Virus record (IMG/VR): IMGVR_UViG_3300039412_000320
Length of the DNA: 47,493 nt
Reading direction: 5' to 3' (one strand)
DNA from: a virus
The notes under the pieces are model-generated. The model saw only the letters and a list, made by a program, of their open reading frames with translations, did not search any database and was not told the origin of the DNA. Below are positions 3,512 through 37,106 of this stretch, piece after piece. Numbering within the stretch: position 1 is the stretch's first letter; the number at the start of each line of letters is the position of its first letter. The position numbers were made by a program, and so were the translations under genes.

Positions 3512-3996
3512 GGCATTTGGCTCCTCATATCCTTTGCTATCTTATCTATTTCGTCATAAGCAAGGTCAAGGCCGGGCACGATGACATCAGCGTGAGCGAC
3601 CAGCCAAGGACTTGGATTGTCATCATCGCAGATGACAACAATCCACTTGTCCAATTCGTGAGCGTACATGATTTCCATTGCCGTGCCCCAGCTTGGCACA
3701 GGACAGTAAGTGAGGACGATATCCGACTGAGTAATGGAAATCTTATCCCGTTTGATTACCCAAAGAGAAGCGGACTTGAGGTCAACATCATCTCGATATT
3801 GCATACGGCTGGGGACAATGATATTCACTCCGTAGTGAAGGCATTTGCTGGAGGCTTGAAGCTCCTCCGGGGCCATACCGCTGTGCCCAAAGCCCCCTGT
3901 GGCAAGTTGATAGTGCTTAATGACGGCCTTTCGCCAGCCGTAAGCTTGCTCGTCAGTTAACCCCTTAATGCCGCCCGATAGATAGATGTTTATCAA
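3508..3996 (-). CDS. nucleoside 2-deoxyribosyltransferase family protein
   Basis: Family motifs are NIYLSGGIKG near the N-terminus and the catalytic-Glu motif GTAMEIMYAHELDKWIVV near the C-terminus. I chose a TTG start at 3996 behind an SD (AAGGAGACTATTTG), just after the stop of the upstream small ORF. The ORF track extends this ORF to 4116 from an ATG. Confidence 0.55.
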   Translation of the reverse strand: MINIYLSGGIKGLTDEQAYGWRKAVIKHYQLATGGFGHSGMAPEELQASSKCLHYGVNIIVPSRMQYRDDVDLKSASLWVIKRDKISITQSDIVLTYCPVPSWGTAMEIMYAHELDKWIVVICDDDNPSPWLVAHADVIVPGLDLAYDEIDKIAKDMRSQMP

Positions 3997-9053: not shown

Positions 9054-9892
9054 ACTCGTTCATCCTCCTCATCCGAAGGTGGGAGCCGCTCGTCATCGGT
9101 AATCAGGTGTATGGGACGGGCGTCTCCGGTCTTCTTAAATGCCCACTCTTTTTCAGGCGGCGGTTCCTCGGGAACAAAATCCTCCGGGGCTAGTGCCTCT
9201 TCAAGCTGGGGGTTGTGTTCGCCCAACAGCTTGCCGGGGGTGTCCGTCGTGATTTCGCCGCTGCCGTTGAATAGTGGCATGTGGGAAGTCCAACTGGCAT
9301 TCACTTGGTCTTTCCCCATGTTGTACTTGTCGGCCTGCGTGCGCTTATGCTCTTTGATTTCCCCCCGGAGAGACTTCACGGTGTTGATGAGGCTCTCCAT
9401 GGTGACATCAAGGTCGTTAGTCAAACGGGAAAACTCAGCGTCGGCAAGCTGTTTGACCTGTGCGGCATTCAGGCGGATGTATGCTTCTTCTTCCATGAGC
9501 TTGCTGGCGGCAAGAGAGTACCATGCCCCAAACTCCCCATGCAGCCGCTTGAGCTTGCCCTGTGCTTCTCGAATCTTGCTCTCGAACTTGCTCACCTTAT
9601 GGGATACCCGGTCGCAGTCGTCGGCGACCGTCTCCATCGCCATGGTAAGCTGGATGCTGTATTGGGACTCACCGCCCGGAGGGACCGACAATTCCAATTT
9701 GAGCTTAGGCAGCTTGTCAACCTCGGCAGCGAGGTCGGAATACATGTCCTCGTAGGAAATGGCGTCCCCGTTGGACTGGTAGGCAATTTTGGTGACCACC
9801 CCTTCGATATGCTCCAAGATGTAAGCTCCGACCAATAGCCGTTCCGCTTGGAAGGAGTCTATAGCCGCTTTGACATTGATAAGTCCCGTCAT
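9050..9892 (-). CDS. hypothetical coiled-coil protein, 280 aa
   Basis: The ORF shows ATGA coupling at both ends. Its C-terminus is acidic and proline-rich. Confidence 0.6.
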   Translation of the reverse strand: MTGLINVKAAIDSFQAERLLVGAYILEHIEGVVTKIAYQSNGDAISYEDMYSDLAAEVDKLPKLKLELSVPPGGESQYSIQLTMAMETVADDCDRVSHKVSKFESKIREAQGKLKRLHGEFGAWYSLAASKLMEEEAYIRLNAAQVKQLADAEFSRLTNDLDVTMESLINTVKSLRGEIKEHKRTQADKYNMGKDQVNASWTSHMPLFNGSGEITTDTPGKLLGEHNPQLEEALAPEDFVPEEPPPEKEWAFKKTGDARPIHLITDDERLPPSDEEDERV

Positions 9893-10251
9893 GAAGTTCC
9901 CTCTGATTGACCCTCTGTTCCTGCCGGGGGTCCGTTTGTGATTGGTTCACTCCCATCTTCTTTCCTGAGATAGGCTTGAACCTTCGTTGTCCGCTTGATA
10001 ACCTTCCGTACTTCATCCTGCATGGTTTTGCCGTCAATCTTGCCCTGCGCACACTTACTTCCGAGCAAAGATTTCCAAGCGGCCATAAACATGGTCAGGC
10101 TGTCATCGACCACATCAGCGACCTCTTCCAAGGGAGTGTCGCCCTCTTGGTAAGCCCCCTTGATATTGAAGAACCGGCTCATGCCGTTGCCAAACTCCTT
10201 GTCGGCAAGCTCCAAGGAGATAGTCACCGACCTAACCACCATATTGCTCAT
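9889..10251 (-). CDS. hypothetical protein, 120 aa
   Basis: The ORF shows ATGA coupling. Confidence 0.55.
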   Translation of the reverse strand: MSNMVVRSVTISLELADKEFGNGMSRFFNIKGAYQEGDTPLEEVADVVDDSLTMFMAAWKSLLGSKCAQGKIDGKTMQDEVRKVIKRTTKVQAYLRKEDGSEPITNGPPAGTEGQSEGTS

Positions 10252-13887: not shown

Positions 13888-14622
13888 CTACGTTTTTGTT
13901 ATGTGTTTAGTTACTCTCTTGTTATACTTACCATCTATCCAAGCTCTTCTTATTCCCCCACTTATTTTCTTTCGTGATTCATCGGTTAGCTTTATACCCA
14001 TATGATACCTTTTTATTTTTTCAAGTCCTTGAGGAGTTAACTTCCATTTTTTACCCCTCTTTCTGCTTTCTTTAACCATTTTTCTAAAGTCGGAATTATC
14101 CCACAGTTTTTTGCTAATTTCTGAACGAAGGGTACGAAGTTCCGAGTTAGCCCATGTTTTAATTACGGCTTTAGTGACTTTAGCACGAAGGGTTGGATTT
14201 TTAGCCCACACCTCTCTACTGGTTTCACTTTTCTCGGCACGAAGTTTATTGTCAGACCATCTTTTTTTCTGAGCTTGGGACATTCTTTGGCGACTTTCTT
14301 GAGATACAGGCCCCGTAAATCCTTCCCCTTCTCGGCAGATGTTATAGCCATACTCTGAGTCTTGAGACTTTAGAAACTTAATAAAATCTTGTTCAATTTC
14401 ATTAAGTTCTTTTCTTGTCTGGATATCCGACCGGAGAGCATGAATAGACCAGACTTTAGGGTCAGGGTGTGCTCTCATTGAATTATAGAGGTGGGAACGG
14501 GTGGAGATTCCCGTCTGGGCATGATTGAATTTTTGCTGTAGATACTTTGTTAAGTTATTTCCCTTGTGCTGCCCAACATAGTATTTTCCTGTTATACTAT
14601 TGACGATTAGATAAATGAACAT
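13888..14622 (-). CDS. GIY-YIG homing endonuclease, paralog of 30648..31346
   Basis: It starts MFIYLIVNSITGKYYVGQHKG, carries EYGYNICREGEGFTGP and has a basic C-terminal tail. The start is the ATG at 14622 behind SD GGGGGAGG. The track start at 14637 lies inside that SD. Confidence 0.85.
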   Translation of the reverse strand: MFIYLIVNSITGKYYVGQHKGNNLTKYLQQKFNHAQTGISTRSHLYNSMRAHPDPKVWSIHALRSDIQTRKELNEIEQDFIKFLKSQDSEYGYNICREGEGFTGPVSQESRQRMSQAQKKRWSDNKLRAEKSETSREVWAKNPTLRAKVTKAVIKTWANSELRTLRSEISKKLWDNSDFRKMVKESRKRGKKWKLTPQGLEKIKRYHMGIKLTDESRKKISGGIRRAWIDGKYNKRVTKHITKT

Positions 14623-14658
14623 AACAACCTCCCCCATAATAGTATTAGGAAGTTGTTT

Positions 14659-16645: not shown

Positions 16646-17899
16646 TCATTCTCCCTTGCCATCGAAATAGTATGTTTCCTCCCGACCATAGGGACGAACC
16701 ATCTTCCATAAAATCTCATAGGCTCCAACAATGTTGCCGTTCTCTAGCTTGATGGCAGCATTGACAATATCAACGGGAAAACACCCATGCAAGTAGTGCA
16801 GCCTGTTTCGGTGCTCAGGGTAGATGCCACGCTCTAACTCGTTGTAAGCCTTCTGTGCTTTCAGGGCTTGCAAAAGCTTATCGTGGAACGCCTTGTACAA
16901 TCCCATCTGCCAACCTTTGACCCATTTGGCAAAGTCCCTTGGAACAGACAAATCGTAGAGGACTTCACCTGTATTATGGTTCAGCTTGCTGTTATGGTCA
17001 AGCCAGGGAGACATGGGATTGTGCATTTCTTGCCAGATTTTCTGGGGTGTGACTCCCGTGACAATCCTGTGGATTCTACAGTACTCGGCGAGCTTCACCT
17101 TCGCCCGGACAGGCGGGAAGTGAGGCCGGTAGACGGCAGCAACATAGCCCTCCTCCGTCATGTCCTTGTCCGCCATGCACTCTTCCACCGACATGTCGAA
17201 CTTCGGCACCAACCGGCACCAGTCCCGGTCCTTGGCATAGCTGTTTAGCTGCTTGTGGAAAGCCTCAAGCTCGGGGTATTCCAATTCCTCCCCGGTCTCG
17301 TTGGCAATGGCAGCAATAAGCACCAGCCCCTCGAAGTTGTAGGGGACAACCACCTTGGTAATCTTGGAGATAATCTCAAAGAACAGAGTGGTATCCTCGG
17401 GAAGGAAATCAGCGAACGCCCTATACTTGACGAACTTCTGCACCTTCTCCGTGGCATACTGCGCCCCCGGCGAGTCAAAGGAACCCCGGCTGGCGACCCC
17501 GTAGATGCCCTCGTAGTGCCACGAGATTCCCGCCCACCCATCCAGCTTGCGGGTGATGGTTATAGGAGACCTCCACATCTTCGCCTGCCCGAGGAGGAAC
17601 TCTGGGGTGAACGTCTCGTCTTGAACTTCCAACTCCCCCTGATTGTTGCGGAAAATGTGGGGTCCTCTTTGGTTGAGGTTGAAAAATTTTGATGGGGGTC
17701 TGGATACAATCACCCCGGCGTCATCCACAATCAGACCACGGCAGATACAAGCTTCAAGAGACCAGTGATTCTCGAAAGTACAACGATTCGAGTAATTCAG
17801 GATTCGCAGGGGCAGTGCGGGGTGACGGCGCTCATTGATAAAACCCTCCCTGATTTGCTTGTTCAGTTCGTCAATGTTTAGCAGATTTTCAAGCTTCAT
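16646..17899 (-). CDS. RNA ligase, Rnl1-like (T4 RnlA-type)
   Basis: The KxDG adenylyltransferase motif I reads ITRKLDGWAG near residue 108. There is an EGLVLI motif-IV-like segment. The ORF is 417 aa and shares an operon with Pnkp. Confidence 0.65.
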   Translation of the reverse strand: MKLENLLNIDELNKQIREGFINERRHPALPLRILNYSNRCTFENHWSLEACICRGLIVDDAGVIVSRPPSKFFNLNQRGPHIFRNNQGELEVQDETFTPEFLLGQAKMWRSPITITRKLDGWAGISWHYEGIYGVASRGSFDSPGAQYATEKVQKFVKYRAFADFLPEDTTLFFEIISKITKVVVPYNFEGLVLIAAIANETGEELEYPELEAFHKQLNSYAKDRDWCRLVPKFDMSVEECMADKDMTEEGYVAAVYRPHFPPVRAKVKLAEYCRIHRIVTGVTPQKIWQEMHNPMSPWLDHNSKLNHNTGEVLYDLSVPRDFAKWVKGWQMGLYKAFHDKLLQALKAQKAYNELERGIYPEHRNRLHYLHGCFPVDIVNAAIKLENGNIVGAYEILWKMVRPYGREETYYFDGKGE

Positions 17900-18555
17900 A
17901 AATCCATCTCTTGTGCTTTAAGCAAGGCTTTCAGTCGTTCTATTTCTTTCTCCATTGCTAAAGGGTTACATTTTGGGTGGGCGAATCCATAGATTTCGCC
18001 TGTTTTATGGTCATGATGAAGGTGGGGAGTTTTTCCACGTGCTAACACTTTCCATGACAGTGTTTCTCCACAACATTCGCAGTTAGGCTCCTCCATCAAT
18101 TTACGAATTACCGTATGAGGGGTATCTTGAAAAATGGGTTGGTATCTCCCCTTTTTTGCTCTGTCATTAGAACCCTTGATAATGAAAGACACACGACAAA
18201 CATATTGTCTTTTCCCTCGATGAGTTCCTGCCATAGAAAACTTGTTTGAACCTTCTACAGGGAGAACTCCACTGCACCCACACGGAAAAGCGTGAAATTC
18301 TCCGGGATTCTGGACATTAAGTGGTTGGCTACCACGGTCCTTCCTGCACCGTTCTTTTTTACAAACTTTACACTCTCCTTGTCCACGGTTAGCAACAGAA
18401 AAACTAGATGTTAAAGATGTCAGTTTAATACCGCATCCGAAACAAGTGCCGTTGCCGTGACAACCACCTTTGGGACCATGATTATGTGGTCTAGTGCAGA
18501 TTCCCCGGTCGGCTCCATTCCTCGCTTTCGGCATTGGCTTGCCACAGATGCTCAT
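17896..18555 (-). CDS. Endonuclease VII-like HNH endonuclease
   Basis: It carries PHLHHDHKTGEIYGFAHPKCN, an EndoVII/HNH motif. The ATG at 18555 overlaps the upstream stop (ATGA). Confidence 0.7.
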   Translation of the reverse strand: MSICGKPMPKARNGADRGICTRPHNHGPKGGCHGNGTCFGCGIKLTSLTSSFSVANRGQGECKVCKKERCRKDRGSQPLNVQNPGEFHAFPCGCSGVLPVEGSNKFSMAGTHRGKRQYVCRVSFIIKGSNDRAKKGRYQPIFQDTPHTVIRKLMEEPNCECCGETLSWKVLARGKTPHLHHDHKTGEIYGFAHPKCNPLAMEKEIERLKALLKAQEMDL

Positions 18556-19325
18556 AAGACCCTCTTGAACTTTTCCGCCCGAGCATACCAATCGGGCATC
18601 CAAGTCATCATTTCCTCCAAGGTTACATCATTTTTTATGGTGTTCACCCGTTTACCACAGAGCACGACATTTCCTTTGACATACCCCCCTTCCGGGACTA
18701 CCCTGTCAACCGAAAGGGTTAAAGCTGCATTAGGCTCCAAACTGAGTGGATAGTCGGTATAGAAACACCTACCATCCTGTTCTTCATACTGTCGATATAG
18801 GTCCTCTGGGTTGATGCTGAAAAGCACCTTGTTTTTCTCAGAACTTTTTCTAAGCCTGCCCCATCTTGCTTTCAGGTATTTACGAAAATCAGAGGCCATT
18901 CTGAGAGTGCTTTCTTTTTCTCGGCATCCACGGCACACCGACTCCCTGTATGGGTCATTTCCCGGTCGAGCAACCAACTTGAAATCACCGACAGGCTTCA
19001 CTTCTTTACACTTCCAACATCTCGCCCGTTCGGCATCTATGATATCCAGCCTATGCCTGATACGGGAGCTTGACCTTAGTCCGTGCTTACTCAGTGTTTC
19101 TCTGACCGTGTTTCTCGATACGCCAAATTGCAGAGCAATCTTACGATTAGACACCCCGTCTTTGTTGAGGCTTACTGCTTGTTCTTCTTGTTCTGGCGTC
19201 AAAGCACGGCTCTTGATTCCTGAACAAGTTTGGCATATTGAGCCGTCTTTAATCGCTTGCCAATAGGAGCTATACCGCTTGTATTCCCTTTCCTTCCCAC
19301 AGCGTGGGCAGTTCAGTTTCCACAT
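18552..19325 (-). CDS. HNH-family homing endonuclease with HTH, paralog of 15736..16584
   Basis: It has an N-terminal zinc ribbon (CPRCG...CQTCSG), an HTH (IALQFGVSRNTVRETL) and LSVDRVVPEGGYVKGNVVLCGKRVNTIKND. Confidence 0.7.
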   Translation of the reverse strand: MWKLNCPRCGKEREYKRYSSYWQAIKDGSICQTCSGIKSRALTPEQEEQAVSLNKDGVSNRKIALQFGVSRNTVRETLSKHGLRSSSRIRHRLDIIDAERARCWKCKEVKPVGDFKLVARPGNDPYRESVCRGCREKESTLRMASDFRKYLKARWGRLRKSSEKNKVLFSINPEDLYRQYEEQDGRCFYTDYPLSLEPNAALTLSVDRVVPEGGYVKGNVVLCGKRVNTIKNDVTLEEMMTWMPDWYARAEKFKRVL

Positions 19326-19382: not shown

Positions 19383-20471
19383 TCAAAAATCTTCGTAGGC
19401 TCCGCATCGGGGGCAATGCCTCCAACCTTTCTTTTCCGGCTTGAACTGGCAAGTAGCAGAGTGGTCCGTGGTTCCGCCCACAGGGTAAACCTTGAACCCC
19501 ATGTCCTTCCACATACGGATTACTTGCCATCTGTCATCAATCAAAAAAGCTATTCGTTCCTTCGGAATGACCCGGAGTATCGTCTCCATAATCCGTCGCT
19601 TGACGATATAATCGTGGTCAAAGTTGGTAGCCGGGCGCATCAAGAGGAGGTCGAATGGCACCCGATAACAACTCAGCCAAGAACAAGTGTCTGTCGAGCA
19701 GGAGTCGTGTCTTCCACTGAGAATTCCGATATTGTGGGTGCTGTACAGTCCCCGGACCCACTTCGCCACGCCCTCCCGGCAGGAGTCCAGCAGGACCTTC
19801 GTCTCGTCGAACTGGTTCCGCTCGCCCTCGTTCTCGGCAAGGCTGCCGTCCACGTCGCAGAACACCCACGGTGCGCCCGGCAGGCGCTCGTGAAAGTCCC
19901 TGCCCCCGGCGATGACGGCGTTAAGCTCGTTCCAGTCGTCTACCGCCCGGTTGGTTTCATCCAGACCGTAGCCAGCCGGGCGGACGGTTGTTTCCCGCAG
20001 CCGCTTGAACTGTTGGTCGATGGCTTCCTCGGGCACGCATTCTTTGCCGGTGCGTAGGGCGTTCCGCCGCTTACACTCTTCCTTGTCCACGTTCATGACA
20101 TGCAGGCAGAACTTTACCCGAGCGCCACGGGCAATCTCTTCCAGCTTTTGCCGGGTGCGGGACACGCAGTTGGTGTCATCCACGATGACGTTGAGTCCCA
20201 TGGCGAGGAACATACGGATGCCCTCTTCCTCATACTTGCGGACCACATCTTCCTTCGAGTGGTTCCACGGGGAATCACAGTAGAGCATGGCACGGATGGT
20301 GTCCCGGTTTACCCGGACGGTCGCTCCCGCTGCCCAGTTGACAAGACTGCGGGCATGGGTGGACTTTCCTGAGCCAGCCGGGCCGACCATAACGGTCAGC
20401 GTGGGGGCATTTTCCTTACCCCCGGAGTAATCCATGTACTGTTCACTGTGCGATGTCTTTTCGAGTTCCAT
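19383..20471 (-). CDS. Polynucleotide 5'-kinase/3'-phosphatase (T4 Pnk-like, bifunctional)
   Basis: The N-terminal Walker A is VMVGPAGSGKST. The C-terminal HAD phosphatase motif is VFCDVDGSLA. The gene has its own promoter element plus SD GAGGAG. Confidence 0.85.
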   Translation of the reverse strand: MELEKTSHSEQYMDYSGGKENAPTLTVMVGPAGSGKSTHARSLVNWAAGATVRVNRDTIRAMLYCDSPWNHSKEDVVRKYEEEGIRMFLAMGLNVIVDDTNCVSRTRQKLEEIARGARVKFCLHVMNVDKEECKRRNALRTGKECVPEEAIDQQFKRLRETTVRPAGYGLDETNRAVDDWNELNAVIAGGRDFHERLPGAPWVFCDVDGSLAENEGERNQFDETKVLLDSCREGVAKWVRGLYSTHNIGILSGRHDSCSTDTCSWLSCYRVPFDLLLMRPATNFDHDYIVKRRIMETILRVIPKERIAFLIDDRWQVIRMWKDMGFKVYPVGGTTDHSATCQFKPEKKGWRHCPRCGAYEDF

Positions 20472-21496: not shown

Positions 21497-21784
21497 TTAA
21501 CCACCGGCACGCTCGCAGGGTCCTTCATTGTACCAAGCCCAAAATCCCTTGCCATAAAGGGTACTCATGACTTGCTCGAACACATAGTGCTCGAAGTCCT
21601 TGGCATAGCCGTCTGGCTTGGAGATTTCCTCAATCTGGCTCACCACGAAAGCTTTCAGATTGTTCCAGTCGGGTTTCTCAAGCAGCGGGGGAGGCGCATT
21701 TCCCTCCGCTTCCCGAGCTTCAAGTTCGGCTTCCAACTCCTCGGTGCTCAACCTTGATAGATGGGGATTACGCTTCGATGCCAT
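21497..21784 (-). CDS. hypothetical protein, 95 aa
   Basis: An SD (AAGGAGG) precedes the start. Confidence 0.5.
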   Translation of the reverse strand: MASKRNPHLSRLSTEELEAELEAREAEGNAPPPLLEKPDWNNLKAFVVSQIEEISKPDGYAKDFEHYVFEQVMSTLYGKGFWAWYNEGPCERAGG

Positions 21785-22154
21785 ACAGCCTCCTTGAAAT
21801 TTGGGCGGGCTTAGGGTTACCAGCCCTTTGATACGGAGATTGGAAATCTCACTCCGCCCTCATGTGAATGAGGGTGCTCTCTACCCGATTCCGAAAAGGC
21901 TATGGTCACTAGCCTCCCCGGCCTCGAATAAGTCTCAGACTGGCAACGATGGCCTATCGCCCTCCAGTCTAAGAACTCCAACTGAGCTACCCGCCGAAAA
22001 CTCTGCGCCCATGGTCGGCGGCTCCATCCGAGTCGAACGGATGCCGGAAGGTTATGAGGCTTCTGGCTTTCCTAAAAGAGCCGTCCCTGTTTCCCCACCG
22101 TAACGTCAGACCCGTGGCGATGCGAGTCCTACAAACCGGCAGGGGCCGGGCAAC
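21785..22154 (-). ncRNA. ORF-free structured region with tRNA-like elements; candidate ncRNA or degenerate tRNA gene(s)
   Basis: There is a perfect hairpin CCCTCAT-GTGA-ATGAGGG at 21858..21875. At 22018..22083 (minus) the sequence reads CGGCTCT..GAAGC-CTCATAA-CCTTC..ATCCG-TTCGACT-CGGAT-GGAGCCG, i.e. acceptor stem, a CAU anticodon loop and a canonical T-arm, but the D-arm is too short. At 21978..21996 (minus) there is a CGGCGGGTAGCTCAGTTGG motif that looks like a tRNA 5' end. Confidence 0.3.
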
Positions 22155-22634
22155 TTAATGCTTTTTGCTCCATTCCTTCAAAAGCTTTTTGCGATAATGC
22201 TTCGGCATCCTCTGAATAAAAAGAATTCCGTTGATGTGGTCCTCTTCGTGTTGAGCGCAATGAGCGTCTAAACCCGTGAGTTCCAAAGTCGTTTCTTTCC
22301 CGCTCATTGGCTCTTGATAGATAATTGTACATTCATCCCGTCGAGAAACAGGTCCGTAAAAATTTGGGAAGGACAAGCAACCCTCCTCAATAATCTTATA
22401 CTCACCTTTAGGCGTAATTTTTGGGTTGACAGCAATTATTTTTTTACCGTCCGCAAGTTTCATGATAAAGACTCTTCGACTAACACCCACTTGGGGAGCA
22501 GCTAAACCCAAACCGTTGTAAGATAACATTATTTCTATCATTTCATTGCACAGTTTTACTAAAAATTCGCCAAATTCCGTAACCGTCTCAGACCTTTGGA
22601 GTAAAATCTCTGTGGGATAGTATAGGATATTCAT
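22155..22634 (-). CDS. def: peptide deformylase
   Basis: It carries the three PDF motifs GLGLAAPQVG, EGCLSFP and HEEDHINGILF. The ATG at 22634 overlaps the HNH stop. The gene is AT-rich. Confidence 0.85.
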   Translation of the reverse strand: MNILYYPTEILLQRSETVTEFGEFLVKLCNEMIEIMLSYNGLGLAAPQVGVSRRVFIMKLADGKKIIAVNPKITPKGEYKIIEEGCLSFPNFYGPVSRRDECTIIYQEPMSGKETTLELTGLDAHCAQHEEDHINGILFIQRMPKHYRKKLLKEWSKKH

Positions 22635-23341
22635 TATTTTAACCCCAATCTGTATTTCGCTATGCGCTCCACCCAATGCAGAAACTCATCAACGGAATCC
22701 GCTTTCTTCCTCTCATTACATTTCTTACAAGCGGGAACGATATTATCTTTTAAATATCCGAGGTCGTTGTTTAAGCGGTCGATTCCATTGCACATAAAGT
22801 ATCCGTATCCCGTTGCGAGCCGCACTTCCCGCTGTGGTGGAGACCCACAGTACCAACAGTCTTTTTTAAGGATATCAGTCGCTTCCTCATTAGTAAGACC
22901 AAAAACAAGGTTTCTCGCCACGGCGTTACGTTCATACTGTCTTACAGTTTTTCTGGCAGCGGATGCACCAAAGGCTTTACGCTCGCTCTCTCGGGTTTGC
23001 GTGTACAAGCACCCGCAACTCCTTGTGTGACTGTCCAACAACTTGCATCTACCGACAACGGTTATTTTTCCACAATCACAAAGACATTCAAAGAAAGTTT
23101 TTTGATTGTGTATCTCCTTTAATCCAAGGACGGTAAGGTATCCGAATCGTTTACCGACAATGTTTTCAAACCCCCTACAACCACAGCTACTCCTGACCCC
23201 GGAGTTTAGCTTTCTTCCCTCAACGCAGCATTCTTTGCCGCAATCACATTTGCATACCCACTTTCGGGGTATAAATTCATCTCTTCTTAATGCAACTAAA
23301 TGCCCCAACCTCCTGTTTGTCAAATCTCCAACTCTTTTCAT
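22634..23341 (-). CDS. HNH homing endonuclease with N-terminal Cys-repeat DNA-binding module
   Basis: It has two RxGxL.VL...W.C.CDCG...SCGC repeats and the C-terminal HNH motif GIDRLNNDLGYLKDNIVPACKKCNERK. An SD (AGGAGG) precedes the start. Confidence 0.8.
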   Translation of the reverse strand: MKRVGDLTNRRLGHLVALRRDEFIPRKWVCKCDCGKECCVEGRKLNSGVRSSCGCRGFENIVGKRFGYLTVLGLKEIHNQKTFFECLCDCGKITVVGRCKLLDSHTRSCGCLYTQTRESERKAFGASAARKTVRQYERNAVARNLVFGLTNEEATDILKKDCWYCGSPPQREVRLATGYGYFMCNGIDRLNNDLGYLKDNIVPACKKCNERKKADSVDEFLHWVERIAKYRLGLK

Positions 23342-26272: not shown

Positions 26273-26938
26273 CTAATTTTGAAACGAATAGTTATTTACA
26301 CTCATTTTACTCCTGTATTCTATCACCGCCTTCATTGCTACTTTCATTTCTTCGTGGGTAAGGTACTTGTTTTTTATTCTATTGCAAATCACACAACAAG
26401 GTACAACGTTTTGTAGAGTATACCCGCTTTTAGGAATTTTCTTGTCTAACCCGTGTCCAGATTCATTTAGCAACCCACCACAATACCAACAAGGGTTTTT
26501 AATGAGGTTAGAATATGCGGGCAGGTCTATGTCTGAAGGAACCCCACTACACTTTATTGCTCTCTTCAAGTTGCTCCAACGTCCCTTAAGACTGCGAAGC
26601 CACTTTTTGCCGATAGCCGATAGCTCTTCCTTGTATTTCTCATAGTAATGCTGTTGACACAGTCCTCGGCCCACTGCCCTAAGCCCACAATGACAGAACA
26701 CTCGGTCCTTACGGTTTCTGCCTGCGCACAGACGACACCTACCTGTGTGGGTTTTTAGTTTTTGGGGATATACTGAAATTTCTTTTCCACAGCCTAACAC
26801 ACAGGGGAATATATATCGTAGTCTTTTAACAAGCTTCTTTATTCCATGTGAATTCCCCTGTTTTAAGATACTTTCAACTCGGATAGCATTTTCTCGTAGT
26901 AACATAGAACCCCCATACAAAGGGGGTTTATAGTTCAT
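26273..26938 (-). CDS. HNH homing endonuclease
   Basis: It carries GLDKKIPKSGYTLQNVVPCCVICNRIKN and is an AT-rich island. Confidence 0.75.
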   Translation of the reverse strand: MNYKPPLYGGSMLLRENAIRVESILKQGNSHGIKKLVKRLRYIFPCVLGCGKEISVYPQKLKTHTGRCRLCAGRNRKDRVFCHCGLRAVGRGLCQQHYYEKYKEELSAIGKKWLRSLKGRWSNLKRAIKCSGVPSDIDLPAYSNLIKNPCWYCGGLLNESGHGLDKKIPKSGYTLQNVVPCCVICNRIKNKYLTHEEMKVAMKAVIEYRSKMSVNNYSFQN

Positions 26939-30647: not shown

Positions 30648-31346
30648 ATGTTTATCTATTTGATTGTTAATCATAAGACTGGAAAGTACTATGTCGGTCA
30701 GCATAAAGGAAGGAATCTAAGGGCTTACTTGCAACGGAAGTTGTCCGCTGCAAAACACAATGAAGGAAAGGGTGGTTCTTATTTATTCGCTTCCATGCGC
30801 AAGCACCCGGACCCCCAAGTCTGGTCCATTCATGCCCTTCGTTCGGATATCCAGACCCGTGAGGAGCTTGATGAGTGCGAACGGGAGTTCATTCGGTTTT
30901 TGCGGGCGCAAGACCCCGAGTATGGATATAACATCTGCCGGGGAGGGGAGGGGTTTACGGGACCACATAACCCATCTTTTGGAATTAACCAAAGCCGTAT
31001 CATGAAAGAAATTTGGGAACGACCAGATTTCCGGGAAAAGATGGCAAAAAGAAAAGGACGTTTGGGGAGTAAAGCTTCGGAGAAAACACGAGAGAGGTTG
31101 AGACTCAGTCATTTAGGTATAAAGCCCACAACAGATGCTTTGAAAAAACGGGCTGAAACAAGGAAGTTGAAAGGAATAAGGTCGCCAATGTTAGGAAGAC
31201 ACCACTCGAATGAAACTAGAAAGAAGATGGTTGAAGCTCATTCCCATAGAGTGTGGTCCGATGAACAAAGGGAATCTCTTGCTATTAGGATGCGTGAAGT
31301 GAGAAAACTAAGTCCAAGAGGAAACAAGGGAGTGGAGGCGGTATAA
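30648..31346 (+). CDS. GIY-YIG homing endonuclease
   Basis: It starts MFIYLIVNHKTGKYYVGQHKG, carries EYGYNICRGGEGFTGP and has a basic C-terminal tail. Confidence 0.85.
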   Translation: MFIYLIVNHKTGKYYVGQHKGRNLRAYLQRKLSAAKHNEGKGGSYLFASMRKHPDPQVWSIHALRSDIQTREELDECEREFIRFLRAQDPEYGYNICRGGEGFTGPHNPSFGINQSRIMKEIWERPDFREKMAKRKGRLGSKASEKTRERLRLSHLGIKPTTDALKKRAETRKLKGIRSPMLGRHHSNETRKKMVEAHSHRVWSDEQRESLAIRMREVRKLSPRGNKGVEAV

Positions 31347-36155: not shown

Positions 36156-37106
36156 ATGAAAATGGGACGCCCCATTGTCGATTTAACAGGTAAGAAGTTT
36201 AACATGCTGACGGTTATACGCCAGACTGATAAACGATGGGGAACATCCGTCCTATGGGAATGTCGTTGTGATTGTGGAGGAAGTATTCTAGCAGTTGGTT
36301 ATAAGCTCAGGAACGGTAGAGTAAAGTCATGTGGGTGCTATAGGAAAAGGATTATCCTTGAAAAAAACACGGTTGATTTGACAGGCAGACAGTTTGGAAG
36401 ATTGACCGTCATAAGTAAGGCTGACGAAATGAAAATTAATAGAGATGGTAGCCAAAGGAAGCTATGGAAATGTTCCTGCATATGTGGTAAAACTAAGATA
36501 ACGAATACTACAGCATTAACTAGTGATAGTGTATCATCTTGTGGATGTATACGAAAAGAGCCTCCGGTAAATTTTAACAATCTAGTAGGCAGAAGATTTG
36601 GTAGACTTACTGTAATTAGTAGAGGAGTGATTGATAAAAAATACCAAACACGCTGGTTATGCCGTTGTGATTGTGGAATGGAGAAATCTTTTCTAGCGGC
36701 AGATTTAGTTAGAGGACTTACACAATCATGCGGGTGTTTACGCCAATTAATATATAGCGGAATGAACTGTCGTTTTTATCAGCATGGAAGAACGGGAACA
36801 GAAGAGTTTAACCACGAAAGACGGGCTAAGCGCCGTTCTTTTGAGAATTTGGCCTCTATAGAACCAATTCCGGTGGGGGCTATATCCCACAGAATGCGGG
36901 TTGAGTTTGAAGGCAAGTGTATTTATTGCAATGACCCATATGAAGCGGTAGACCATTTAACCCCTCTAAGTAAAGGTGGGTTACATGCATTGTGGAATTT
37001 GGTGCCAGCATGTACATTTTGTAATTCATCTAAAAAAGATAGGTTATTGGGCAGCGGGTGGTGGCCCAAAGCTTGGAATGTGGAGGTTTCTACTAATGTT
37101 AATTAA
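36156..37106 (+). CDS. HNH homing endonuclease with three N-terminal Cys-repeat modules
   Basis: Three copies of the G(K/R)xFGxLTV...W.C.CDCG...SCGC repeat are followed by the classical HNH motif CIYCNDPYEAVDHLTPLSKGGLHALWNLVPACTFCNSSK. Confidence 0.85.
   Translation: MKMGRPIVDLTGKKFNMLTVIRQTDKRWGTSVLWECRCDCGGSILAVGYKLRNGRVKSCGCYRKRIILEKNTVDLTGRQFGRLTVISKADEMKINRDGSQRKLWKCSCICGKTKITNTTALTSDSVSSCGCIRKEPPVNFNNLVGRRFGRLTVISRGVIDKKYQTRWLCRCDCGMEKSFLAADLVRGLTQSCGCLRQLIYSGMNCRFYQHGRTGTEEFNHERRAKRRSFENLASIEPIPVGAISHRMRVEFEGKCIYCNDPYEAVDHLTPLSKGGLHALWNLVPACTFCNSSKKDRLLGSGWWPKAWNVEVSTNVN

Follow-up and report, generated by a model that had tools for sequence, protein, structure and literature searches.

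The intergenic gap at positions 21785-22154 of a virus genome (IMG/VR record IMGVR_UViG_3300039412_000320; 47,493 nucleotides [nt], referred to here as the window) carries tRNA-derived structured RNA genes on the minus strand that are maintained by selection. The gap is not coding, and as a class these RNAs are not decaying junk; we regard this conclusion as secure. From 5' to 3' on the minus strand, the gap contains a long irregular hairpin (E0), a mini-cloverleaf tRNA-like RNA (E1), a truncated tRNA-Val-derived element (tRNA2) interrupted in its D-loop by a 94-nt insertion, and the 3' half of a further cloverleaf-like RNA (E3). The anatomy, strand, and conservation of these modules, their compensatory changes, the deletion in the window copy, and the gene context were all directly observed and are described below. 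A sequence-only reading of the same DNA had regarded the gap as a structured region with tRNA-like fragments and had suggested three possibilities: two tRNA genes in decay, a regulatory RNA resembling tRNA, or a signal for processing or packaging.

The gap is flanked by a peptide deformylase gene (22155-22676, minus strand; Pfam PF01327, E = 1e-42) and by an open reading frame (ORF) of 95 amino acids (aa) (21497-21784, minus strand), and the tRNA-like array occupies 21802-22145 within this same-strand operon. The minus strand of the gap folds at -158 kcal/mol (z = -3.9 versus dinucleotide shuffles) and the plus strand at -132 kcal/mol (z = -1.7); folding is thus beyond chance, and the minus strand folds better than both the plus strand and the shuffled sequences. 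A custom scan of approximately 120 kb on both strands for a T arm with a matching 7-bp acceptor stem matched only E1 and tRNA2. Neither a sigma-70-type promoter nor an intrinsic terminator was found within the gap. The Shine-Dalgarno sequence (AAGGAGG) and ATG of the 95-aa ORF (21782-21795, minus strand) are located 6 nt downstream of the closing strand of the array, or 7 to 12 nt when the distance is taken from the Shine-Dalgarno sequence to that strand.

Homologues were traced via three flanking proteins (i.e., the 95-aa ORF, the deformylase, and a 775-aa upstream protein). Four additional lineages, all from uncultured phages, were found to have the corresponding intergenic RNA region; their contigs measure 52 to 364 kb, and on the basis of these contig sizes we consider the relatives to be jumbo phages. 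The lineages are referred to by one locus each: L001 (loci L001, L002, L012, L013, and L019), L005 (L005 and L006), L009 (L009, L010, L011, and L020), and L025 (L025 only). Together with the window, the comparisons span five lineages. Two independent assemblies, one from JGI (L021) and one from ENA (L022), matched the 370-nt gap of the window at 100% identity, and the window's 95-aa ORF was indexed in 50 blocks of the collection. The window genotype is therefore real and commonly assembled. The RNAs were missing near more distant homologues of the 95-aa ORF (L007 and L008) and of the deformylase (L014 to L016), and none was seen in L026. DNA-pattern scans of IMG/VR, JGI metagenomes, and one genome per GTDB species returned only known contigs or chance matches; the RNA family is thus rare in the searched collections. 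In cellular genomes, these scans gave nothing, or chance matches in coding DNA of a Pseudomonadota metagenome-assembled genome and of Allofournierella. A BLAST search of the gap and of E1 against 50,697 GenBank phage records produced no match.

E1 (22012-22087, minus strand) is a tRNA-like RNA of 75 to 76 nt defined by folding, alignment, and the metazoan-mitochondrial mode (-mt) of ARAGORN. Its acceptor stem (22077-22087 with 22014-22025) includes the seven pairs formed by CGGCUCU (22077-22083) and GGAGCCG (22019-22025), which the sequence-only reading had correctly recognized. The stem extends to 9 to 11 bp in relatives, whereas the outer 4 bp are disrupted in the window; after processing, 7 to 9 bp followed by N-CCA would remain. 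The T arm (22026-22042; AUCCG-UUCGACU-CGGAU) and the CUCAUAA loop (22052-22058) had been identified as well, and both are present. The former has a canonical 5-bp stem and a UUCRANY loop. The latter belongs to an anticodon arm at 22044-22066 and has U33 and A37 in three lineages (CUCAUUA, with U37, in L009); in the window, the stem of this arm is closed by a C·C pair and also has an A·C mismatch. The D-arm region had been judged to be 6 nt too short. It instead holds a mini D arm (22068-22076) with a 3-bp stem, in which a U-A pair is replaced by C-G in a double change, and a 3-nt AGG loop. This mini D arm lies within a 10-nt linker and departs from the canonical D arm (i.e., a stem of 3 to 4 bp, a loop of 7 to 11 nt, and G18G19). 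A CCA (22012-22014) is encoded in all four lineages with E1, at a nonstandard spacing in the window. E1 keeps the "top half" of a tRNA (i.e., acceptor stem, T arm, and CCA), with a vestigial D arm and an imperfect anticodon stem.

Comparison across the related phages supported this structure. In the four-lineage alignment, 91.6% of the E1 pair cells were paired, compared with 36 to 56% when the partner columns were slid, and only 4 of 500 shuffles reached this value. Each of the four helices has one compensatory double change (e.g., A-U to G-C in the T stem of L009). By our count from the alignment and the per-pair table, 11 of the 14 differences between the most divergent copy (L009) and the others were compensated or structure neutral. 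Approximately 85 nt are identical among the window, L001, and L005 lineages despite deformylases with only 57 to 60% protein identity. These features are at odds with the earlier suggestion of decay. A covariance model of E1 (R1) scored 94 to 105 bits in all four lineages carrying the element and revealed no further copies in approximately 140 kb, including none in L025.

Standard detectors largely miss the array. ARAGORN with default settings called no tRNA in the 47-kb window or in any locus, and its tmRNA mode gave nothing in the window or the relatives. Relaxed settings, which had been suggested as a check, had a mixed outcome: E1 was called by the -mt mode alone, as mtRNA-Met(cat), and tRNA2 was called in relatives when long introns were allowed, while the window copy of tRNA2 was missed even with introns of up to 200 nt. 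No element matched Rfam; searches of the window, L001, and L009 at the gathering thresholds and at E ≤ 10 yielded only noise (WT1-AS, engA, Guanidine-II, and a 17-bit partial tRNA-Sec).

The second tRNA-derived element, tRNA2, is truncated in the window (21857-21996, minus strand) and complete in the four other lineages, where it reads CGGCGGG-UA-GCUC-AGUUGG-[insertion]-(U)AGA-GAGC-A-CCCUC-loop-GAGGG-AGGUC-T arm-CCCGCUG-A-CCA. In the relatives' copies, the stems measure 7 bp (acceptor), 4 bp (D), and 5 bp (anticodon), the variable loop has 5 nt, the T loop is UUCGAGU, and A73 and an encoded CCA are present. When the insertion was removed in silico, ARAGORN gave a clean cloverleaf for tRNA2 in the lineages of all four relatives, and BLAST showed approximately 80% identity to assorted phage tRNAs. 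In the window, the 5' exon-like part (21978-21996) consists of CGGCGGG, U8 and A9, the D strand GCUC, and the D-loop segment AGUUGG (with A14, G18, and G19). The sequence-only reading had noticed this tRNA-like 5' end, CGGCGGG-UA-GCUCAGUUGG, and had concluded that the pairing then decays. The pairing in fact resumes after the insertion: 21857-21883 contains the end of the D-loop (UAGA, with A21), the D strand GAGC, A26, and the anticodon arm CCCUC-AUUCACAU-GAGGG. A hairpin that had been listed here is present at 21857-21874.

The acceptor, D, and anticodon stems of tRNA2 are invariant, and its T stem covaries (U-A to G-C and U-G to G-U). The tertiary Levitt pair 15:48 changes from G:C to A:U in L009. 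The covarying T stem and the switch of the 15:48 pair argue for a genuine L-shaped core. The anticodon loop of the window copy is 8 nt long and reads U33-CAC-A37 (i.e., Val). In four of the five lineages, including the window, one extra nucleotide precedes U33, giving AUU(U/C)ACAU or AGUCACAU; the loop is then 8 nt long, or 6 nt if an A-U pair forms. The wobble position varies between C34 and U34, and U33, A35, C36, and A37 are invariant. A suppressor tRNA, based on a UCA or UUA reading of the loop, was rejected, since L005 has a G at the would-be U33, the 7-nt loop of L025 has UAC, and the genes use code 11.

The D-loop insertion (21884-21977, minus strand) follows G18G19 and precedes A21, within the D-loop's variable pocket. 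It comprises two adjacent hairpins, A (21934-21973) and B (21883-21929). The AGACUGG/CCAGUCU stem that had been pointed out near this position is hairpin A. A second predicted hairpin (21885-21900) exists as sequence, although it represents only the 3' side of the larger hairpin B. The insertion ranges from 94 nt (window) to approximately 115 nt (L025), occupies the same D-loop site in all five lineages, and forms two adjacent hairpins in every lineage (sense z = -5.6 in the window and -3.8, -2.1, -3.7, and -1.25 in the others). Between the window/L001 and L009/L011 sequences, 3 pairs change on both sides and 12 on one side with pairing kept. Most of these changes convert G-U to G-C or A-U, which is consistent with a minus-strand RNA only. 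Identity between lineages is 52 to 72% in the insertion versus 87 to 95% in the exon-like parts. Because A14, G18, G19, and A21 are preserved, the insertion need not disturb the tRNA core. We argue that the insertion is an old, structured feature. The apical loop region of hairpin A contains a self-complementary GGCC (21949-21953 in the window) in all five lineages, even in L025 where the stem is unrelated, and this could be a kissing-loop or protein-recognition site. An origin from a miniature inverted-repeat transposable element or other transposon was discarded, as terminal inverted repeats are lacking and every lineage has the insertion at one and the same site.

The window copy of tRNA2 was shortened by an 88-nt deletion relative to the L001 and L005 lineages, with the junction at 21856..21857 (minus strand) and an identical gap in L021 and L022. 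Lost from tRNA2 were its variable loop, T arm, 3' acceptor strand, and ACCA, and the 5' half of E3 was lost as well. In L001, L005, and L025, E3 is a cloverleaf-like RNA that is closed by GGUAGG/CCUGCC and starts 4 to 7 nt after the CCA of tRNA2; it is missing in L009. The 3' half retained in the window (21802-21855, minus strand) consists of hairpin 2 (21835-21855; GGAG/CUCC stem), hairpin 3 (21813-21827; AGGG/CCCU stem and 7-nt loop), and the closing strand GCCCGCC-CA (21802-21810). As a result of the deletion, the window has a chimera in which the tRNA2 anticodon arm is directly followed by E3 hairpin 2, hairpin 3, and the closing strand. In both the minimum-free-energy (MFE) and centroid folds, this multibranched RNA is closed by pairing of GGCGGGU (21989-21995) with GCCCGCC (21804-21810). 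Within the 57-nt 3' block, the sole difference between the window and L001 is a change from the U of the relatives to C at 21807, which turns a G-U pair into G-C in the new closing stem.

A second window-specific change, a 4-nt patch in the E1 trailer (22015-22018, minus strand; UCC to CCGA), disrupts the outer acceptor pairs of E1 and creates CCGCCGA-CCA. This sequence is a perfect complement of the tRNA2 5' strand UCGGCGG, with which it pairs in the MFE fold of the whole gap, and the patch region is identical at 9 of 10 positions to the deleted tRNA2 3' end. Both the patch and C21807 raise complementarity to the tRNA2 5' acceptor strand that was orphaned by the deletion; they may reflect selection, short-patch gene conversion, or chance. 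A circularly permuted or split tRNA, in which the E1 T arm and the window-specific CCGCCGACCA would combine with the downstream 5' half, was tried and rejected. It leaves GGAG, 4 extra nt, between the T stem and the acceptor strand, and the feature is limited to one genotype; we retain it only as an unexplained observation.

E0 (22093-22145, minus strand) is a long irregular hairpin (CCCCUGCCG...CGGUGGGG), recognized by folding, that immediately follows the stop codon of the deformylase gene. The window, L001, and L005 lineages share it; L009 and L025 either lack it or have something different. Between E1 and tRNA2 lies a spacer (21997-22011, minus strand) ending in the leader GUUUU, which is conserved in all five lineages. 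In L001, this spacer holds a 57-aa ORF (2517-2690; MKYRYRFGSGW...), and in L009 it holds an unrelated 32-aa hydrophobic ORF (3654-3752; MSLPTKEDVWGKIIFAVIFTVAFAWMAYHLAR); neither occurs in the window or L005. In the more distantly related L025, the tRNA2 and E3 pair (9657-9965) lies several small ORFs downstream of the deformylase gene, without E1. Modules are therefore reshuffled among lineages, with E1 missing in L025, E3 missing in L009, and small ORFs between modules. Hairpin 1 of E3 (L001 2868-2925) has a 7-nt loop, ACCGCAA, that is invariant in three lineages while the stem changes. This loop is complementary (CCGC/GCGG) to the conserved downstream linker GGUAGCGGAG (L001 2926-2935), and the two could form a pseudoknot, which would compete with hairpin 2.

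How the array might act is less certain than what it is. The reading that we favor, and to which we give an even chance of being correct, is that the modules are cotranscribed, excised by host tRNA-processing enzymes, and act as nondecoding tRNA mimics or scaffolds. The absence of a promoter or terminator in the gap suggests that the array would be transcribed together with the deformylase operon. RNase P would cut at the U-rich leader, 3' trimming would halt at the encoded CCA, and the modules would persist as stable tRNA-shaped RNAs that do not decode. The tRNA frame would then serve as a scaffold for processing and stability and as a mimic for tRNA-binding proteins, the putative cellular targets; candidate functional surfaces are the additional conserved hairpins or, alternatively, the loops of CAU and Val type. 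A mimic or scaffold is suggested because the canonical top half (acceptor stem, T arm, and CCA) is kept. A lack of decoding is suggested by the abnormal loops, i.e., the 8-nt (or 6-nt) tRNA2 loop in four lineages and, in E1, U37 in L009 and the C·C and A·C mismatches; it is also suggested by the location of a domain of approximately 100 nt next to G19 at the tRNA elbow. The elbow is contacted by the ribosome, RNase P, and T-box RNAs. Furthermore, the most commonly assembled genotype is without the tRNA2 T arm yet keeps the insertion and has an improved closing stem, which fits a role for the inserted hairpins or for the scaffold as a whole and not one in aminoacyl transfer. Of the earlier proposals, a tRNA-like regulatory or processing RNA is compatible with these data, and nothing supports a packaging signal.

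Several observations weigh against this reading. Most double changes are confined to one branch (L009), and with only five lineages statistical power is low. The structure of E3 is 98.9% paired yet almost invariant and thus is without covariation support. According to a caveat of the tool itself, related sequences may beat shuffles without any structure. Hairpin B of L025 is longer and more stable on the antisense strand (z = -2.7 versus -1.25). Finally, two features of tRNA2 suggest decoding: L025 has a canonical 7-nt loop, AUUACAU, and is called as tRNA-Val(tac), and the wobble-only variation of the loop looks like that of a decoding or ValRS-recognized tRNA, which would favor a spliced insertion.

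Such splicing is the basis of the alternative that survives best, although we consider it unlikely. E1 and tRNA2 would be decoding tRNAs, the D-loop insertion would be an intron, and the exons would be healed and sealed by two enzymes encoded downstream of the array on the minus strand, a T4-type polynucleotide kinase-phosphatase (PNKP; 19383-20471) and a T4 Rnl1-family RNA ligase (16646-17899). E1 would read AUG or AUA, and tRNA2 would be a tRNA-Val that is possibly frameshift prone owing to its 8-nt loop. An endonuclease of the host or the phage, or else self-cleavage, would excise the insert, and the window tRNA2 would be a recent pseudogene. Broken tRNA is repaired by T4 Pnkp together with Rnl1, and yeast Trl1 splices tRNA by the same chemistry. 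The two genes are located 1.3 to 4 kb from the array, with HTH and EndoVII-like genes between them. PNKP is syntenic with the array in every locus examined (window, L005, L009, L012, L022, L025, and L026), and the Rnl1-type ligase was seen wherever the locus reaches far enough (window, L005, and the P0112 contig). The kinase domain of PNKP also gave subthreshold matches to the Ser-tRNA(Sec) kinase (PSTK) and KTI12 models. The exon-like parts alone form a complete cloverleaf, L025 has a canonical anticodon loop, the 15:48 pair covaries, only position 34 varies among U33 to A37, and the higher identity of the exon-like parts than of the insertion is as expected of exons and an intron.

The insertion nevertheless matches no known intron or ribozyme family in Rfam. 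Group I introns in tRNA genes have a P3-P9 core, are usually at least 200 nt long, and are located in the anticodon loop; the insertion, with 94 to 115 nt, two simple hairpins, a D-loop site, and no Rfam match, has no such core and is too small for one. No bulge-helix-bulge could be drawn by inspection, as the two junctions are unpaired with each other and each half forms a local hairpin. No EndA-family splicing endonuclease was matched by Pfam among the approximately 38 window proteins scanned, and IMG/VR yielded no intron-less tRNA2 allele. Rfam gave no match to a self-cleaving ribozyme of a known kind (hammerhead, twister, pistol, hatchet, and HDV [hepatitis delta virus]-like) by gathering threshold or at E ≤ 10. 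On inspection, the CUGANGA/GAAA core of the hammerhead is missing and there is no room for an HDV P2 strand; the topology of E3 and of the insertion does not fit an HDV-like/theta ribozyme. T4 Rnl1 is specific for breaks in the anticodon loop. The 8-nt anticodon loop and the oddities of the E1 loop would be poor for decoding, and the most commonly assembled genotype has no tRNA2 T arm. The most novel version of this alternative appears more doubtful still: the insertion would represent a tRNA intron of a new class, carried by a bacterial virus and removed by endonucleolytic or self-cleavage, and the phage PNKP and Rnl1-type ligase would rejoin the exons to yield an 8-nt-loop tRNA-Val that could reprogram the reading frame.

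A second alternative, which we rate as improbable to a degree lying between these two versions of splicing, is that the folds are cis-acting punctuation or translational control elements of the mRNA. They would recruit RNase P and 3' enzymes to sever the deformylase message from that of the ORFs downstream, the excised RNAs would be functionless, and the 3' half of E3 would determine where the mRNA of the 95-aa ORF begins or how accessible it is. The intergenic site in a same-strand operon, with neither promoter nor terminator in the gap, is in line with this idea, as is the position of the closing strand abutting the Shine-Dalgarno sequence, and the shuffling of modules between lineages fits interchangeable processing cassettes. 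For such a role, however, an acceptor/T-arm minihelix would suffice. The conserved CAU and YAC loops, the 15:48 covariation, the encoded CCA, and the 94-nt two-hairpin domain are left unexplained, and the window tRNA2 remnant, which lacks a T arm and would be unusable by RNase P, is retained.

It is very unlikely that the array represents functionless remains, be it tRNA pseudogenes in decay or debris left by recombination, in a genome with many homing endonucleases, although some features of the window speak for this. Homing-endonuclease-like genes are unusually dense across the 47 kb: HNH genes at 22634-23341 (minus strand; 235 aa, between a 159-aa gene and the deformylase gene) and 36156-37106, a GIY-YIG/NUMOD3 gene (30648-31346), EndoVII-like genes (17896-18603 and 26273-26938), and a further homing-endonuclease-like gene (13888-14637). 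The HNH gene at 22634-23341 occurs only in window-type genomes (window, L022, and L014) and is absent from L005, L009, and L012. The window deformylase is 57 to 60% identical to the L012 and L009 alleles, whereas identity reaches 98% for the flanking 775-aa protein and 95% for the flanking 95-aa protein. (Sequence searches of PDB, Pfam, and NCBIfam gave nothing useful for the 775-aa protein.) Since the lineage-limited HNH gene coincides with the divergent deformylase allele, the RNA region lies at a boundary of a recombination mosaic, and the pattern resembles mosaicism associated with a homing endonuclease, with its end at the RNA region. Such a breakpoint, the 88-nt truncation of the window tRNA2, and the abnormal anticodon loops could all suggest debris. 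Against this stand the identity of E1 in three lineages with diverged neighboring genes, the compensatory changes in all four E1 helices and in the insertion hairpins, and the retention of tRNA2 and its insertion where the neighboring 775-aa protein is only 42 to 45% identical. The earlier idea of a decaying tRNA gene pair is therefore right in that both elements are tRNA derived and the second is truncated here. It does not hold in general, because four other lineages have the second element as a complete cloverleaf of tRNA-Val type whose D-loop carries a conserved, structured insertion.

A coding gap (i.e., the 100-aa plus-strand ORF, small minus-strand ORFs, or an alternative genetic code) is already refuted: the ORFs of 100, 54, and 30 aa that were listed mechanically have no family match, close relatives differ by indels of 88 and approximately 190 nt, neither a multiple of three, that break them, substitutions track base pairing and not codon positions, and the flanking genes are normal in genetic code 11. 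The longest of these ORFs (21801-22103; TTG initiated, plus strand), which is antisense to the RNA array, had zero family matches, is disrupted by both indels, and is regarded as spurious; the earlier description of the gap as free of ORFs is valid in any meaningful sense.

We compared the tRNA-derived elements, for which we favor a mimic or scaffold role, with known systems. With the insertion taken out in silico, the relatives' tRNA2 resembles canonical tRNA-Val(UAC/CAC) in its stems, U8, A14, G18G19, A21, U33-YAC-A37, T arm, and A73-CCA. It differs in the D-loop insertion of 94 to 115 nt, the 8-nt loop in four of five lineages, and the C1-G72 start; the window copy in addition lacks the T arm and the 3' acceptor strand, and the element is missed by default ARAGORN and by Rfam RF00005. 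E1 shares a reduced D region, a tRNA outline, and a 7-nt anticodon loop with the D-arm-reduced tRNAs of metazoan mitochondria (mt-tRNA-Ser(AGY) and nematode tRNAs). Unlike them, E1 is phage encoded and has a bacterial T arm, an encoded CCA, a 9- to 11-bp acceptor stem, anticodon-stem mismatches, and U37 in one lineage. From the deformylase gene and the Shine-Dalgarno sequences, we judge the host to be probably bacterial.

Introns in the D-loop exist in archaea, where they are of the bulge-helix-bulge type. Like these and the bacterial group I and II tRNA introns, the tRNA2 insertion interrupts a tRNA outside the anticodon loop; unlike them, it is only 94 to 115 nt long and has no bulge-helix-bulge, no group I or II core, and no Rfam match. 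One group II intron has been reported in the D-loop of a bacterial tRNA (PMC13011429; see also PMC3695527). A review of noncanonical tRNAs describes no structured D-loop expansion (PMC7609411). In the literature that we searched, we encountered neither a bacterial or phage tRNA whose D-loop carries a small, conserved insertion of two hairpins nor a phage mini-cloverleaf with a 9- to 11-bp acceptor stem.

In tRNA mimics and scaffolds such as turnip yellow mosaic virus (TYMV) RNA, tmRNA, and YrlA, the additional domain takes the place of the anticodon arm or lengthens it, or the acceptor stem forms a pseudoknot. The elements described here have in common with TYMV, the tRNA-like domain of tmRNA, YrlA Y-RNA, and engineered scaffolds a tRNA frame, an intact top half, an extra non-tRNA domain, and probably a nondecoding role, and the Val-type anticodon of tRNA2 recalls the valine-accepting tRNA-like structure of TYMV. 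The difference is that the tRNA2 domain is inserted in the D-loop, and neither the tmRNA mode of ARAGORN nor Rfam finds anything. With tRNAs that have enlarged anticodon loops (frameshift-suppressor or hopping tRNAs), tRNA2 shares the 8-nt loop AUU(U/C)ACAU; in contrast to these, it combines this loop with a D-loop domain, and any decoding role would be conjectural. A few natural tRNAs, some of them in a phage, have nonstandard loop sizes, and frameshifting by them is unproven (reviewed in PMC5009743). Theta (HDV-like) ribozymes lie 3' of phage tRNAs and have been proposed to process their trailers (PMC10879173). E3 occupies a similar position in L001, L005, and L025, starting 4 to 7 nt after the tRNA2 CCA; it differs in being a nested cloverleaf-like structure closed by its own ends and not an HDV double pseudoknot, for which P1, P2, and P1.1 could not be drawn. 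Because the tests for canonical tRNA, group I intron, bulge-helix-bulge, tmRNA, and ribozyme each fail in at least one defining feature, the locus lies outside the named families, and we filed it as a set of noncanonical tRNA-like genes.

Charged tRNA can serve phage enzymes outside translation (PMC13219725). More generally, these RNAs bear on how viral tRNA genes are found and understood. Phage tRNA genes are usually viewed as codon-usage helpers or as counters to tRNA-cutting defenses, and detectors assume a standard cloverleaf. The present findings suggest that scans of viral metagenomes should allow insertions in tRNAs outside the anticodon loop. A clade of jumbo phages keeps tRNA-derived genes that standard detectors miss, i.e., a mini-cloverleaf and a tRNA-Val frame with a D-loop domain of approximately 100 nt. 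To our knowledge, tRNA repair is the only known phage role of Pnkp and Rnl1. If the domain is removed from tRNA2, the locus would represent protein-dependent "heal-and-seal" tRNA splicing in a bacterial system, next to these two enzymes. If the domain is retained, it would constitute a natural "tRNA scaffold" that presents a functional RNA and would offer a new model for remodeling of the tRNA elbow. Either way, the array provides concrete substrates for specialists in tRNA enzymes.

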